Shown here in pieces: positions 2,696 to 19,185 of a stretch of 20,321 bases of DNA. How positions within the stretch are numbered: position 1 is the stretch's first letter; every line of letters begins with the position of its first letter. The notes beneath the pieces were generated by a model. That model saw only the letters and a program-made list of their open reading frames with translations. It was not told where the DNA came from and made no database searches. The position numbers and the translations under genes were made by a program. The stretch lies in the UHGV virus genome UHGV-0122335; one strand, given 5' to 3'. Source of the stretch: a virus.

Positions 2696-3031
2696 TTACA
2701 CGCCCAGTTCTTTACGCTTATCTGCGATCTTCTCGCGGAGCGTTTCGGCTTTGGCGTTATGGTGTGGCTTCTCGTTAAAGAGCAATTCGTACTCTTCACG
2801 GAGCTTATCCAGTTCACCATCATCTGACACATCGTTGATGATTTTGGTGCTGGTTGCTGCCATTGACACCTTTCCTGCAACTTTTGCTTTTGCCTGTCTG
2901 GCTGCATCGTTAACAGGTTCCAGTGCGCTACCAGGCTCACCTTCGTATTCGATTTCTGCCCCCTCCGGCCACAGAGTGTTATGGATATGAGAGAGGCGCA
3001 GAACGCGGTATCTTGGTTTCTCACCTGACAT
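2696..3031 (-). CDS. Hypothetical virion-module protein (111 aa from ATG 3031; track gives a GTG start at 3040)
   Basis: ORF track 2696..3040; internal ATG at 3031 is preceded by AAGGTGA; lies between capsid-region genes. Confidence 0.5.
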   Translation of the reverse strand: MSGEKPRYRVLRLSHIHNTLWPEGAEIEYEGEPGSALEPVNDAARQAKAKVAGKVSMAATSTKIINDVSDDGELDKLREEYELLFNEKPHHNAKAETLREKIADKRKELGV

Positions 3032-3041
3032 CAATATCACC

Positions 3042-3479
3042 TTAACCAGTTACTTTTGAGCGGATCGGATACGGCGTATTGGCATCAACATCAAGATTGA
3101 TACCCGCAGTGAATTTGCCAGCCGTTAGTGGGCCAGTTGCGACGGAGTAGTTAACACGCAGATATCGCTGAACACCGGCAGGCACCTTTGCAGAAACAAC
3201 TCGCTTACCTGCTGTCAGGGGGGCCTTTGCCAGTGCGCCACTATCATAAATAGTGGACCATGAGCTGTTATTCTCACTCGTCTGCAACTGGATGTTTACA
3301 GTTGCCTCACCACTTGCCGTGGCGGCTTCGTTAACCAGCACCCAAAACTCAAGCGGGTAACCCACACCGATATCGCGACGGTTTCCGTCAATTGGACCGA
3401 GATCGATTACGTCAGTAGAAGCCGCGGTATCAGTTACCGCCTGTGCTTCGGAGAACATCAACAGTTTGTCGGTGATCAT
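3042..3479 (-). CDS. Hypothetical virion protein (145 aa), possible head decoration or accessory protein
   Basis: ORF track; ATG at 3479 with GGAGA upstream; immediately downstream of the major capsid gene. Product inferred from position. Confidence 0.55.
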   Translation of the reverse strand: MITDKLLMFSEAQAVTDTAASTDVIDLGPIDGNRRDIGVGYPLEFWVLVNEAATASGEATVNIQLQTSENNSSWSTIYDSGALAKAPLTAGKRVVSAKVPAGVQRYLRVNYSVATGPLTAGKFTAGINLDVDANTPYPIRSKVTG

Positions 3480-3494
3480 CTTCTTTCTCCATTA

Positions 3495-3514
3495 GTGGGC
3501 CTGTTGCGGCCCAC
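3495..3514 (-). other. Stem-loop immediately after the major capsid gene (GTGGGCC-tgttgc-GGCCCAC)
   Basis: 7-bp perfect inverted repeat 17 nt downstream of the capsid stop codon; no U-run, so probably a stability hairpin or partial terminator. Confidence 0.3.
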
Positions 3515-3530
3515 AGGTTAATAACAGGCG

Positions 3531-4517
3531 TTACACCACGCGGGCTTCTGTTTCCAGAAGTGCGTCAGTTTCACGAATCGGCACACCACGAAGTGCTGTC
3601 CACCATTCGCCTTCTGTCTCTTTCACGCTGATCGCCAGAGAACTCTTCTCCAGAGATTGCAGGTCAAGCACTTCGTTAATGGTTCTGTTCATGTAGAAAA
3701 CAGGACGTCCCATCCCACGATTTGGGATTCGATGAAGGGCACGAATCATCAGTTTTGCGATATTCGCGGCAGTAGAAGGAGCGTCAAGATTACTGACATC
3801 AATGTTTGCGATACGAACTACATAGCGCCAGTCACGTAATGTCAGCCCGTTGTCCCACTTATAATGGGTACGATAACCTTCGTACTTGCCGCCTTTAGCA
3901 TCTTCCAGTGTCACCTGGCCTTTATCTTCCATCTGAATGCCAGCCTTCTGTCCTTTCGGGAAGATGCCATGCACGGTGTTTTCGCCCCACACCACTAACC
4001 AGATTGAAGTGTTATCTGTACCCGTGCCACCAGCATCAATGATGTTCTGAGCATTACCCGCAGACAGGCTGGAATAGCGGGAGGACAGTCCCATAAACTG
4101 CTGAGGGTTAACGCTGGAATCACCGTAAAACAGTGTCTGCGCCATCGCCTGATTCATCGCTTCAATAAATGCTCGGTCTTCAGACAGACGGAATTCGGCA
4201 GTATTACCGTTCAGATCAGCCAGAGACTTATCGACTTCAGCATAGGTTTCCAGCATGCCAATGGAATCGGTGACCTGCACTGTGGTTGATTTGCTTGGCT
4301 GTACGCCATAGTTCAGCAAACGCCAGGTAGCAGAAGGTAAACCAGAACGAATGGTGGTTCGGTGTCCGGTAGGAAGGTTTCCTTCAACAAAAGGCATATC
4401 CTGAAGAATTGGGTTAGTTTGATTGAGAAGCTCGATAATCTTATCGACTTTCCCATTTGGATCGACGCGCTTACCCCAGTCAGCCAGCGTTAGCGCAGTT
4501 AAGCCTTTAACAGACAT
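3531..4517 (-). CDS. Major capsid protein (328 aa)
   Basis: ORF track; ATG at 4517 with strong GGAGGAGA-type RBS; size and position (after portal and an acidic scaffold-like protein) are typical of a major capsid protein. No sequence match was confirmed. Confidence 0.7.
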   Translation of the reverse strand: MSVKGLTALTLADWGKRVDPNGKVDKIIELLNQTNPILQDMPFVEGNLPTGHRTTIRSGLPSATWRLLNYGVQPSKSTTVQVTDSIGMLETYAEVDKSLADLNGNTAEFRLSEDRAFIEAMNQAMAQTLFYGDSSVNPQQFMGLSSRYSSLSAGNAQNIIDAGGTGTDNTSIWLVVWGENTVHGIFPKGQKAGIQMEDKGQVTLEDAKGGKYEGYRTHYKWDNGLTLRDWRYVVRIANIDVSNLDAPSTAANIAKLMIRALHRIPNRGMGRPVFYMNRTINEVLDLQSLEKSSLAISVKETEGEWWTALRGVPIRETDALLETEARVV

Positions 4518-7216: not shown

Positions 7217-7423
7217 TTACTGACCAAGCAGCGTTTTACCGCTGGTATTAGCGGTTGATGTGTCGCCCTGAGAACCGGTAAGCAGCGTAGAACTACGACC
7301 AGCAGCAGCGCGACGGCGACGAGTTTCTTCGTCGCGGGCATCAACAACGGCGGCATCCTGCTCCTGTGGTGCTGCCTGAACTTCTGGTGTTGCAGGCACT
7401 GATGGTGAGCTACCCATGCACAT
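7217..7423 (-). CDS. Small acidic S/T/A-rich hypothetical protein (68 aa) upstream of portal
   Basis: ORF track; ATG at 7423 preceded by GGAGTCATTGAT; stop lies 15 nt before the portal ATG. Confidence 0.45.
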   Translation of the reverse strand: MCMGSSPSVPATPEVQAAPQEQDAAVVDARDEETRRRRAAAGRSSTLLTGSQGDTSTANTSGKTLLGQ

Positions 7424-7491
7424 ATCAATGACTCCGTACGCAATTAAATTATTACCAATTTAACCACATATGATTTATTTATCGTAGACAG

Positions 7492-7520
7492 TTGACATTT
7501 AATGCACGAATTATTACCTT
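7492..7520 (+). promoter_or_regulatory. Candidate sigma70 promoter (TTGACA at 7492-7497 with a weak -10) upstream of the tRNA island
   Basis: Consensus -35 hexamer TTGACA; the downstream -10 is poor (TATTAC/TACCTT region); overlaps the palindrome at 7514..7528. Confidence 0.3.
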
Positions 7521-7528
7521 TAAGGTAA
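7514..7528. repeat. 15-bp near-palindrome TTACCTTTAAGGTAA (copy 1 of 2)
   Basis: Seen directly; a second copy TTACCTTGAAGGTAA lies at 8138..8152; a further palindrome GGTTACTAACC lies at 7545..7555. Confidence 0.5.
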
Positions 7529-7857
7529 CCAAAGAGTTCATTCCGGTTACTAACCTGACTGGCTTGTCGTTAAATTGAACAGGTGGAGTGAGCTTTTATT
7601 TTGAGCAGTACGGCGTATGGCACATGCGACGATAGCGGTCTGGATACGTTTAAGGGGCACCCTCCCTTGCTCGGGCAAACGAACCAGGTAGCCGGAATGT
7701 GCAAGTCGAGCGGTTTTATTCCGCGCACGGGGATTCACCATCCCGGCGATTCGGTGTGACGCCTCGGAAGAGACGAGGGTACAACGATGAGAGCATTGGA
7801 TATTAGCGGGCTGTTCCACCCTACCTGATATCGAGCCAAACCAGTGCTCTCAGCGTT

Positions 7858-7934
7858 GTGGCATTAGCTCAGTTGGACAGAGCAACCGCCTTCTAAGCGG
7901 TTGGTCGCAGGTTCGAATCCTGCATGCCACGCCA
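7858..7934 (+). tRNA. tRNA-Arg (anticodon UCU, reads AGA), CCA encoded
   Basis: Hand-folded cloverleaf: acceptor GTGGCAT/ATGCCAC, D-stem GCTC/GAGC, anticodon stem ACCGC/GCGGT with loop CTTCTAA, T-arm GCAGG-TTCGAAT-CCTGC, discriminator G plus CCA. Phage-borne tRNA-Arg(UCU) is common in lambdoid and Stx-type phages. Confidence 0.9.
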
Positions 7935-7977
7935 GAATCACGCCTAAGGACCGTGATGCCAGAAGTTCCAGGGGATT

Positions 7978-8019
7978 GGCGGTGACTGTTTCCCTTGAAG
8001 GACTATCACCGCCCTTTTT
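7978..8019 (+). terminator. Putative intrinsic terminator downstream of the tRNA
   Basis: GGCGGTGA...TCACCGCC 8-bp stem (long structured loop) followed by CTTTTTTA. Confidence 0.45.
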
Positions 8020-8097
8020 ACAGCAGGACGCCATTGCGATGACTTCATGCTGTAAACCAGTACAGCCACGGAAGGCATAACTCATTGCTTCCAGTTC

Positions 8098-8121
8098 GCC
8101 CGGTTCGCCGGGCATTTTTTT
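8098..8121 (+). terminator. Intrinsic (rho-independent) terminator
   Basis: GCCCGG-ttcg-CCGGGC hairpin followed by ATTTTTTT. Confidence 0.65.
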
Positions 8122-8137
8122 GCCTGGTGACTGAACG

Positions 8138-8152
8138 TTACCTTGAAGGTAA
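8138..8152. repeat. 15-bp near-palindrome TTACCTTGAAGGTAA (copy 2), 33 nt upstream of the moron ATG
   Basis: Seen directly; overlaps a candidate promoter (GTGACT -35 at about 8127, TAAGAT -10 at 8150-8155). Confidence 0.5.
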
Positions 8153-8184
8153 GATAACAAAAACATTTAACATCTGGTTTAGAC

Positions 8185-8790
8185 ATGTTCGAGCAATTTA
8201 AAGAGATCGCATCATCGGCTATTAGCACAGCGTCAGAGAGAGTCCGCAACCCAGCACTTGGGGCATTTGTGTTTTCGTGGTGTTCTTTTAACTGGAATCC
8301 ACTATTATTTTTATTCTTCAGTAAGTCAGGAATTGAAGAAAAAATAAATTATATATCTTCCCATAGTGATGCGTACCACTCACTCTTATATCCAGCTTTA
8401 TGTGCATTCGCGCTGTGTGTAATAGTTCCATGGTTTAACAATATAGTGGTGATGTTTCAAAAAATTCCACTACAGAACATCGATAACTTCAAACACAACA
8501 AAAGCCTCAGGGATGTTAAAAACGCCATAGAATTGCGTAAGCTTGAGGCACAAAGGGACATTACATACGACAGAGTTAAGGTTGAGTTTGAGTCTGAGAT
8601 TCAATTCTATAAAAATGATTTAATCAAGCACCAAGAGTCTTTGAATTCTTTTTTGCAGGAAAGAGATTCCCTTATTGAAAAAATAATGGCGCTTGAAAAA
8701 GAACTTGCAGAAGAAAAAATAAAATCCAATACCAGAATTGCAAATAAGTTTAACTCAAGGAACAATCGCAACACAGACAATGCTGCTTAA
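8185..8790 (+). CDS. AT-rich moron: predicted membrane protein with two hydrophobic segments and a C-terminal coiled-coil (201 aa); function unknown
   Basis: ORF track; strongly AT-rich relative to flanks; opposite strand to the structural operon; hydrophobic stretches LGAFVFSWCSFNWNPLLFLFF and LLYPALCAFALCVIVPWFNNIVVMF followed by a K/E-rich heptad-like region; no obvious SD sequence. Confidence 0.6.
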   Translation: MFEQFKEIASSAISTASERVRNPALGAFVFSWCSFNWNPLLFLFFSKSGIEEKINYISSHSDAYHSLLYPALCAFALCVIVPWFNNIVVMFQKIPLQNIDNFKHNKSLRDVKNAIELRKLEAQRDITYDRVKVEFESEIQFYKNDLIKHQESLNSFLQERDSLIEKIMALEKELAEEKIKSNTRIANKFNSRNNRNTDNAA

Positions 8791-17314: not shown

Positions 17315-17647
17315 TCAATCGTAATAAGCTGGAATTGATTTTCCGCGTTGCTTCTGGCGGCCTGAGCAGGTCAAACCCATTTCACTACGTGGCTTGCTGT
17401 ACCATGTGCGCTGATTCTTGCGCTCAATACGTTGCAGGTTGCTTTCAATCTGTTCGTGGTATTCAGCCAGCACTGTAAGGTCTATCGGATTCAGTGCGCT
17501 TTCTACTCGTGATTTCGGTTTGCGATTCAGCGAGAGAATAGGGCGGTTAACTGGTTTTGCGCTTACCCCAACCAACAGGGGATTTGCTGCTTTCCATTGA
17601 GCCTGTTTCTCTGCGCGACGTTCGCGGCGGCGTGTTTGTGCATCCAT
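17315..17647 (-). CDS. N: Antitermination protein N (lambda-type)
   Basis: N-terminus MDAQTRRRERRAEKQAQWKAANPLLVGVS is the lambda N arginine-rich boxB-binding motif and the protein is near-identical to lambda N over most of its length; AGGAG RBS. Confidence 0.9.
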   Translation of the reverse strand: MDAQTRRRERRAEKQAQWKAANPLLVGVSAKPVNRPILSLNRKPKSRVESALNPIDLTVLAEYHEQIESNLQRIERKNQRTWYSKPRSEMGLTCSGRQKQRGKSIPAYYD

Positions 17648-17845: not shown

Positions 17846-17875
17846 GCCCTTCTTCAGGGCTTAATTTTTAAGAGC
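17846..17875 (-). promoter_or_regulatory. nutL (boxA plus boxB)
   Basis: The minus strand reads GCTCTTAAAAATTAAGCCCTGAAGAAGGGC, one base different from lambda nutL boxA-boxB as recalled; about 200 nt upstream of N. Confidence 0.8.
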
Positions 17876-19056: not shown

Positions 19057-19064
19057 GACATTCC

Positions 19065-19096
19065 AGCTCTTACACATCCCAGCCCTGAAAAAGGGC
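19065..19096 (+). promoter_or_regulatory. nutR (boxA AGCTCTTACACAT plus boxB GCCCTGAAAAAGGGC)
   Basis: boxB matches lambda nutR boxB exactly as recalled; boxA is near-identical; lies between cro and cII. Confidence 0.8.
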
Positions 19097-19185
19097 ATCA
19101 AATTAAACCACACCTATGGTGTATGCATTTATTTGCATGCATTCAATCAATTGTTATCTAAGGAAATACTTACATATGGTTCGTG

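Follow-up and report, generated by a model that had tools for sequence, protein, structure and literature searches.

The window analyzed here is the whole 20,321-nucleotide stretch of DNA of virus genome UHGV-0122335, and it showed 100% identity throughout to Escherichia phage EC.W1-9. Phages phiV10 and TL-2011b and the O157 typing phages 9 and 10 were ~94–98% identical to the window; its relatives are epsilon15-like podoviruses of the genus Uetakevirus. The region of interest, 7556–7857, is flanked by two minus-strand blocks, one containing a 68-aa gp3-like gene and the portal gene and the other the large and small terminase genes. On the plus strand, just three features lie between these blocks: the region itself, the tRNA-Arg(UCU) gene that directly follows it, and ORF 8185..8790. 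The record of the identical phage EC.W1-9 is free of CDS across 7556–7857.

An earlier reading made from the sequence alone had described this region as non-coding and had dismissed an 89-aa minus-strand ORF (7550..7819) as spurious. Our data agree with both statements. The ORFs that overlap the region (7550..7819 and 7570..7728 on the minus strand, 7601..7759 on the plus strand) are mechanical, no frame was conserved, and across the core the best frame of either strand was free of stops in only 12 of 35 diverse homologs. In favor of a protein-coding gene, be it the Arg-rich 89-aa minus-strand ORF or a 52-aa plus-strand ORF, one may say that such ORFs do exist in the window and that hypothetical proteins are annotated over the element in some homologous records. 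However, apart from the paucity of open frames, the substitutions in the helices described below are compensatory and not codon-periodic, and the variable domains differ in length between members. A coding gene is thus essentially excluded, and we gave it the lowest probability of all readings considered.

BLAST searches showed that window positions 7610–7797 are 78–81% identical to DNA of unrelated phages, with sharp borders. The matches fell mostly on feature-free stretches, with a few records annotating hypothetical proteins there. Copies with ~80% identity were found in three settings, namely lambdoid phages (mEp460, cdtI, Stx2a_1447/WGPS2, Stx2c phages, Ayreon and 2H10), plasmid prophages (P1, P7 and other P1-like elements) and other Uetakeviruses. 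Similarity to the lambdoid and P1 copies starts at 7610, which leaves 7529–7609 outside the conserved RNA. The structured part extends from 7610 to 7857/7858, where it adjoins the tRNA gene, and the copy in the window scored 138 bits with the covariance model of the core (R1). Coordinates of all features are given in Table 1.

Table 1. Features of the RNA-tRNA cassette and related elements in the window (coordinates refer to the whole stretch)
Feature	Position	Strand	Sequence, basis or remark
Sigma-70-type promoter candidate A	-35, 7492–7497; -10, 7515–7520	+	-35 TTGACA, weak -10; sequence, consensus scan
Sigma-70-type promoter candidate B	-35, 7485–7490; -10, 7509–7514	+	TAGACA / AATTAT; within 7485..7520
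Operator-like perfect 15-bp palindrome	7514..7528		TTACCTTTAAGGTAA; overlaps -10/+1 region
Lineage-specific 5' leader	7529..7609	+	common only to close Uetakevirus relatives
Conserved RNA core	7610..7781	+	covariance model R1, 156 positions; ~172 nt
P1 hairpin	7611..7631	+	7611–7616 with 7626–7631; loop holds nearly invariant UGGCACAU
P2 helix	7635..7692	+	7635–36 and 7639–42 with 7685–88 and 7691–92; closes variable domain 7643–7684
Nearly invariant 19-mer	7687..7705	+	GGUAGCCGGAAUGUGCAAG; invariant in 9 BLAST-found homologs
Variable hairpin	7711..7725	+	GCGG-UUUUAUU-CCGC; window sequence
P4 hairpin	7730..7744	+	GGGA-UUCACCA-UCCC; 3 of 4 pairs changed on both sides
Pseudoknot	7736..7756	+	P4 loop CACC 7736–7739 with GGUG 7753–7756; 100% of cells pair
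P5 hairpin	7762..7778	+	CCUCG-GAAGAGA-CGAGG; 3 of 5 pairs changed on both sides
P6 long stem	7782..7858	+	arms 7782–7799/7841–7858, variable insert 7800–7840; 4 compensatory pairs
tRNA-Arg (UCU), encoded CCA	7858..7934	+	ARAGORN; Rfam tRNA model 73.3 bits
Conserved hairpin H	7937..7957	+	AUCACG-CCUAAGGAC-CGUGAU; follows tRNA or tRNA-like module in unrelated loci
Intrinsic terminator T1	7978..8019	+	GGCGGUGA...UCACCGCC, then C and UUUUU; terminator scan
Intrinsic terminator T2	8098..8121	+	GCCCGG-UUCG-CCGGGC, then A and UUUUUUU; consensus and terminator scans
Second operator-like palindrome	8138..8152		TTACCTTGAAGGTAA; upstream of ORF 8185..8790
Lambda N gene	17315..17647		ORF in the window
Exact lambda boxB (nutL/nutR)	17846–17860 and 19082–19096		in the window

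The region almost certainly encodes a conserved structured RNA, and covariation among homologs supports four helices and a pseudoknot in its core. A de novo scan of all column pairs in 80 unique homologs, which combined mutual information with Watson-Crick/G-U pairing and assumed no structure, recovered P1, P2, P4, P5 and the pseudoknot. Among these 80 homologs, the P1 helix pair 7615/7627 was G-C in 60, A-U in 19 and G-U in one; the P2 pair 7641/7686 was U-A in 46 and C-G in 34, and 100% of P2 cells paired. The first pair of P4 was C-G in 51 and G-C in 25 homologs and its second pair A-U in 51, C-G in 19 and U-G in 10, whereas the pseudoknot pair 7736/7756 was C-G in 62 and A-U in 18. Three species-level loci (L149, L156 and L157) added further compensations in the P1 helix (G-U to C-G and C-G to U-A). 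In the 35-sequence alignment, 98.8% of cells in the proposed helices were standard pairs (90.8% in shuffles), and pairing dropped to 27–46% of cells when the partners were slid by 1–3 columns. Compensatory base changes, for which the sequence-only reading had proposed to search homologous regions, were present: 79 cells were changed on both sides compared with 23.5 in shuffles, none of 500 shuffles reached 79, and 10 pairs of this alignment showed compensatory change (6.9 in shuffles). Several positions had G-U pairs, which on the opposite strand would read as A-C mismatches; thus, the RNA is read from the plus strand, the same as the tRNA.

Outside the helices, the 19-mer was unchanged in 19 of 23 loci retrieved with a pattern that did not contain it. 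Homologs also have a hairpin at the position of 7711–7725, with other sequence and length. RNAalifold favored a long-range pairing of GCACAU (7620–7625) with AUGUGC (7697–7702) over the local 5' hairpin, whereas covariation backs the local hairpin. The long-range pairing is invariant and without covariation, it has three uncompensated singletons, and we kept it as a candidate pseudoknot only; among invariant hexamers, complementarity of this kind is not improbable by chance.

The sequence-only reading had also called the region structured-looking, with many local hairpins. However, the z-scores of single-sequence minimum free energy folding were at chance level (-0.66 for the plus and -0.75 for the minus strand). 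Therefore, this impression is not decidable from the window sequence alone, and single-sequence folding is unusable as evidence for either strand. In our alignments, the structure of 7610–7857 is visible by comparison only. One hairpin singled out by that reading, GGGA-UUCACCA-UCCC (7730–7733/7741–7744), does exist and is among the helices best supported by covariation, but its proposed resemblance to a T-arm did not hold. A T-arm would be expected to have the UUCRA consensus with A58 and a 5-bp stem; here, the stem has 4 bp, a C occupies the position of A58 in the loop UUCACCA, and the CACC of this loop pairs with the downstream GGUG instead.

The core is followed by P6, a long stem in which compensatory pairs were also found (for example, one pair with 15 G-C and 7 A-U, and another with 9 G-C, 4 U-A, 4 A-U and 3 C-G). 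Its 3'-arm motif was present in 103 of 132 distinct loci, and in the window the last P6 pair uses G7858, which is nucleotide 1 of tRNA-Arg. Of the 103 P6-bearing loci, 25 resemble the window in that tRNA-Arg directly follows P6, and in at least 54 its place is taken by a module that opens with a GUGG acceptor-like arm (27 loci of type a, 22 of type b and 5 of a further variant). About one fifth of P6-bearing loci have neither. By locus comparison, the tRNA-Arg of the window occupies the slot that holds the tRNA-like module in many relatives. The type a module has a 7-bp stem (GUGGUGA/UCACCAC), a 2-nt linker, a 4-bp D-like hairpin and a T-like hairpin that abuts the 3' strand of the 7-bp stem. 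Both hairpins show compensatory changes, their loops are complementary (GCUGAU/AUCAGC; in locus L089, GCUAAU/AUUAGC), and a genuine GGUUCGACUCC T-arm is kept in some members. The stem, the two hairpins and the complementary loops make it a tRNA-shaped element, which is probably tRNA-derived. The type b module has only ~4 acceptor-like pairs.

These modules bear on the suggestion that 7556–7857 is a degenerate remnant of a tRNA array or an unstructured tRNA leader. The region lies directly 5' of tRNA-Arg, it contains a hairpin with a 7-nt loop, and tRNA-derived modules are found nearby in relatives. However, those modules sit at the tRNA-Arg position and hence outside 7556–7857. ARAGORN searches for tRNA and tmRNA over 7401–8200 (default, 95% and 90% thresholds) detected only the tRNA-Arg at 7858–7934, the Rfam tRNA model (E up to 10) matched only at 7858–7931, and with both the 90% threshold and the covariance model the interval 7401–7857 was empty. 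In addition, the conserved fold is not a cloverleaf, and ~80% identity is maintained in phages that have no adjacent tRNA. A tRNA remnant is therefore essentially excluded. The description of the region as a long tRNA leader is literally right, as the RNA lies between the promoter candidates and tRNA-Arg on the same strand, but it misses the main point: at most of the loci checked the same RNA has no adjacent tRNA, and in P1 it lies downstream of one.

Upstream of the leader, the two promoter candidates are accompanied by an operator-like palindrome, and a second such palindrome precedes ORF 8185..8790, which suggests a separately controlled promoter for this ORF. Matches to the palindrome were not as numerous in any of 100 shuffles. 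At the equivalent place, the epsilon15 record carries annotated 'repressor' and 'IHF' sites. A sigma-70 match of at least 9/12 ends 6–54 nt before the core in 28 distinct homologous loci; the crude promoter scan gave 43 hits overall versus 29 in shuffles (of 125), barely more, so that information comes from the positional clustering alone. Together, the signals upstream of the core point to expression that would be early and repressor-controlled. On the 3' side, the start of the T1 stem, UUGGCGGU, is common to different phage types, and a terminator-like site was found 200–730 nt 3' of the 19-mer in ~85 of 110 distinct loci (median, 324 nt). With a promoter candidate and operator, the RNA, the tRNA, hairpin H and terminators in succession, and with the next ORF having its own operator, the RNA and tRNA appear to form a self-contained cassette.

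In lambdoid phages the element is located just 3' of cI on the same strand, in the position of the PL leader, and the early-left operon follows. Many such phages that lack N carry the same cassette here, often with a tRNA-like module in place of the tRNA of the window. At ~70 distinct lambdoid loci it lies 100–250 nt 3' of cI, with several kb of genes in the same orientation after it; the upstream repressor genes come from at least eight unrelated families. The mEp460 core is preceded at ~40 nt by a PL-like promoter that has repeated TTGC...GCAA operators, and an intrinsic terminator stands between the cassette and the first early-left gene. Past this terminator no obvious promoter was seen by eye, and a consensus scan of 2700–4200 gave one promoter-like plus-strand site (2712–2740). 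In phage P1, the core lies between trnI and ban within the C1-controlled ban operon, directly in the ban 5' region, and has no P6, tRNA-like module or terminator. A tRNA ends 14–15 nt before the start of the core in P1 and in D6-like plasmid prophages. No adjacent tRNA was present at about two thirds of the loci checked.

The element is widespread. Exact matches to the invariant 19-mer occurred in >120 IMG/VR contigs, and 1840 of 5426 complete E. coli genomes (~1/3) contain the element, at 1920 chromosomal and 554 plasmid places. All 40 E. coli matches listed, a sample spread over the 2120 matching records, fell on feature-free stretches. A species scan (one genome per species, with a pattern excluding the 5' half of the element) yielded 23 loci, all from Enterobacterales except for one 1.7-kb contig from a MAG labeled Bacillota, and model R1 scored 106–165 bits in all 23. 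No protein gene was consistently linked to the element; the first downstream ORFs are unrelated and belong mostly to families of unknown function.

The remaining suggestion of the sequence-only reading, an uncharacterized small RNA, fits best what was found: the RNA is conserved, covarying and pseudoknotted and has no Rfam match. In the window, only the tRNA passed the gathering thresholds of Rfam 15, with no GOLLD, ROOL, riboswitch, ribozyme or sRNA hits, and the covariance-model search proposed in that reading gave zero matches overlapping 7556–7857 at E up to 10. The mEp460 copy gave only chance-level matches at E up to 10. A CsrA sponge or an Hfq (ARN) target was also considered, and only two invariant GGA motifs were seen, too few as judged by eye. 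None of the phage or RefSeq E. coli records examined annotates the element as an RNA. The searchable literature on put, mEp phages, the Pas/AgvB prophage sRNAs and phage structured-RNA surveys, as well as the Minerva preprint, contains no description of it, a result that covers the searchable text and, for large motif surveys (PMC8040213), the named candidates. Given that no Rfam family, annotation or searchable description was found, we filed the element as a new RNA family. It appears to be a new family among phage-borne structured non-coding RNAs rather than a new kind of system.

One idea on the function of this RNA is that it is a self-cleaving ribozyme or processing element that separates tRNAs from neighboring RNA in polycistronic phage transcripts. 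Phage ribozymes adjoining tRNAs are known, such as the HDV-like theta ribozymes; the core has a compact fold with a pseudoknot, its unpaired segments are nearly invariant, and in P1-like, D6-like and Uetakevirus contexts it lies 0–15 nt from tRNAs or tRNA-like modules. However, there were zero matches to Rfam ribozymes at E up to 10, the local 5' hairpin topology is unlike the nested double pseudoknot of HDV, many loci have no nearby tRNA, and a cut at the tRNA side is already accounted for by RNase P. We regard a ribozyme as improbable. A riboswitch or other ligand-sensing leader that controls the downstream terminators is more improbable still. Its place in a 5' leader, its aptamer-like invariant nucleotides and pseudoknot, and the terminators downstream would suit such a role, but these terminators lie 150–300 nt or more past the core, with variable inserts and the tRNA or module in between, and thus there is no overlapping expression platform. 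Moreover, the genes downstream have no relation to one another and mostly lack a known function, the phage P1 copy lacks a terminator, and zero Rfam riboswitches matched. Both ideas are less likely than the two readings that follow.

The putL and putR sites of phage HK022 are cis-acting, protein-independent antiterminators. By analogy, the nascent core might act as an RNA-only, put-like processive antiterminator that binds RNA polymerase and resists the terminators that follow, i.e., T1 and T2 in the window and the terminator between the cassette and the operon in lambdoid relatives. We rank this reading second and consider it possible, albeit on the unlikely side. It would explain the PL-leader position, as lambdoid phages without N have a terminator before genes needed after induction. 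The ~70 lambdoid loci with the element in this place and several kb of co-directional genes after it, the upstream repressors from at least eight unrelated families, and the mEp460 terminator ahead of the first gene, with no obvious later promoter by eye apart from the one site in the scan, are all in line with it. So are two negative results: no N-like gene was detected among the first downstream ORFs (PHROGs assigned only unknown-function, ParB-like and RdgC-like families), and lambda boxB was absent from all 135 homologous loci. The extreme conservation would also suit a binding partner that is itself a conserved host machine, for example RNA polymerase.

Like put, the element is an RNA-only feature with no consistently linked protein gene, and its lambdoid copies start the PL transcript before intrinsic terminators, with no N gene there. 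In several loci the core starts 0–50 nt from the predicted transcription start, as does putL (PMC9378689). The structures are unlike, with ~170 nt and a pseudoknot here compared with put RNA, in which ~73 nt form two stems and a triplex (PMC9378689). No put homology was detectable, and R1 found zero matches in HK022 22000–32000, which includes both put sites. Whereas put occurs in both the PL and the PR operon, the element is present once per locus, with no second copy on the PR side; in lambdoid relatives it occupies the PL-leader position, and in the window it is not in an early operon. Some copies thus lie outside early operons, and the element is coupled to a terminator of its own and to tRNA or tRNA-like modules; an antiterminator would leave these parts of the cassette unexplained. 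The phage in the window poses a further difficulty, as it owns lambda N with nutL/nutR, while the element lies elsewhere on the strand opposite to all its neighbors. Terminator-resistant transcription would there proceed antisense into terL, and ORF 8185..8790 has its own operator. That the element constitutes a second, structurally unrelated class of RNA-only antiterminators, a functional analog of put that would have replaced N/nut at PL in a large group of lambdoid phages lacking N and spread as a portable cassette to P1-like and epsilon15-like phages, is likewise possible but on the unlikely side.

A lambda-type nut site was considered and rejected, given that genuine N and boxB are located elsewhere in the window and that the homologous loci have neither boxB nor an N-like ORF. 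Some likeness to nut exists in the PL-leader position of relatives, in P5 (a 5-bp hairpin with the purine-rich loop GAAGAGA) and in the 3' arm of P6, which often reads UGCUCUUU and resembles the boxA core. However, the P5 loop has 7 nt and the boxA-like string is base-paired within P6, which led us to discard a boxA reading.

The reading that we rank first, tentatively and on the basis of sequence comparison, is an early-lytic stable RNA that is released by RNase P at the 5' end of the tRNA. In the lysogen, the phage repressor would keep the cassette from being transcribed; upon induction or infection, transcription would set in early, from the cassette's own promoter or from PL. RNase P would cleave where the tRNA or tRNA-like module begins, and this cut would free a discrete RNA of ~250–330 nt with its 3' end buried in P6 and at the same time deliver tRNA-Arg(UCU). 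The nearly invariant segments of the released RNA could then bind a component conserved across Enterobacteriaceae. The promoter, the RNase P cleavage and the stability of the RNA are all predicted steps of this model. A tRNA or tRNA-like structure that abuts the end of the RNA, the arrangement that characterizes RNase P-released RNAs, is indeed observed: as the structured RNA borders at its 3' end on either a tRNA or a module with a 7-bp stem, this end would be set by RNase P.

A released RNA would explain the link to tRNAs or tRNA-like modules in three phage types and the terminator that travels with them. It would also account for the layout of the window, where the unit opposes all its neighbors and the next ORF has its own operator. 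However, the arrangement in phage P1, with the core alone in the ban 5' region, fits a role in cis better than a released RNA. The lambdoid layout, in which the cassette and terminator stand between PL and the early-left operon, also speaks against release and invites the antitermination reading. We note separately that the one fifth of P6-bearing loci with neither tRNA nor module counts against a released RNA.

RNase P matures the C4 antisense RNA of phages P1 and P7 and also releases MALAT1 from its mascRNA. The arrangement described here is similar to both in that a tRNA or tRNA-shaped module abuts the 3' end of a structured RNA. It differs in that the released partner would be the upstream RNA, that the tRNA itself is functional and that cleavage is predicted from the arrangement. 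No sequence relation to C4 is apparent, as Rfam 15, which may or may not include a C4 model, reported only the tRNA in the window. GOLLD and ROOL RNAs often adjoin tRNA genes and, similar to the present element, are phage- or prophage-borne and intricately structured; the whole cassette here is ~400–500 nt, with modular variable inserts. Unlike them, it has no Rfam match, its core is much smaller, and it is found in Enterobacterales as opposed to Lactobacillales and rumen bacteria.

If these conclusions are correct, a very common structured RNA has gone unannotated in ~1/3 of complete E. coli genomes as well as in phage P1 and in Stx2-converting and O157-typing phages. A practical consequence is that annotators now call spurious hypothetical proteins over the element. 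The finding would bear on how lambdoid phages without N transcribe the early-left operon past terminators. It would also bear on the role of phage stable RNAs linked to tRNAs, the same question that has been asked of the T4 species 1 and 2 RNAs since the 1970s.

The slot that tRNA-Arg fills in the window is occupied in about 54 related loci by a tRNA-shaped module. Type a of this module has an acceptor-like stem of 7 bp together with D-like and T-like hairpins, whose loops are complementary. The modules of loci L156 and L151, which retain a real T-arm sequence, look like intermediates. GUUG/CAAC repeats flank the conserved RNA core, the long P6 stem that follows it and the tRNA-like module, and alternative pairings through these repeats could form. 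The 3' arm of P6 carries the string AGUGCUCU(U/C)..GUUGUGG, within which a boxA-like core, UGCUCUUU, is contained; a similar string, GAGUGCGCUUCCAGGUGUG, also occurs 5' of the RNA core in some Uetakeviruses (BUCT554, BUCT711 and PAT1).

Separately, we observed that this epsilon15-like podovirus has a lambda-type N system. The boxB sequences of both lambda nutL and nutR were matched exactly, and one stretch appears closely similar to the nutR-tR1 region of lambda.

Coordinates of the features discussed
Feature	Location	Strand	Remarks
tRNA-shaped module	L004 (mEp460) 3241-3372		occupies tRNA slot; equivalents in about 54 loci
P6 3'-arm string	window 7843-7861 and homologues
WYA78230.1, hypothetical protein	window 7864-8115 = L002 (EC.W1-9) 3465-3716	-	EC.W1-9 record annotation
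Operator-like palindrome, second copy	window 8138-8152		just 5' of 201-aa ORF 8185-8790 (+)
N-type ORF	window 17315-17647	-	start reads MDAQTRRRERRAEKQAQWKAAN
Lambda-type N-system sites	window 17846-17860; 19058-19140	-; +	exact lambda boxB sequences, nutR-tR1-like stretch
dicF-like region, annotated	L006 769-870 = P1 68791-68892		in core-bearing P1 ban operon

In the EC.W1-9 record tRNA-Arg is unannotated, and the hypothetical protein WYA78230.1 runs antisense to it and to both terminators; this CDS is probably spurious. Similar CDSs covering the RNA in other records, mEp460_037 among them, also look spurious. The 201-aa ORF beside the second operator-like copy belongs to PHROG 4780, whose function is unassigned in PHROG, and its product is predicted to have hydrophobic N-terminal segments and a coiled coil. 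Such cargo ORFs vary among related phages in the slot bounded by the RNA unit and terL.

With regard to copies elsewhere, epsilon15 (L003 1501-1831) retains the promoter, leader and 5' hairpin of the element without most of the core, and its record marks an RNase III site in part of this region. A full-scoring copy (157.6 bits) was found in a 1.7-kb contig (L153, JAIIAN010000430.1) from a MAG labelled Bacillota; the contig is most likely contaminating enterobacterial phage DNA that was binned with it. Finally, the core, the annotated dicF-like region and three tRNAs all lie in the P1 ban operon, which thus carries an unusually large number of RNA genes.
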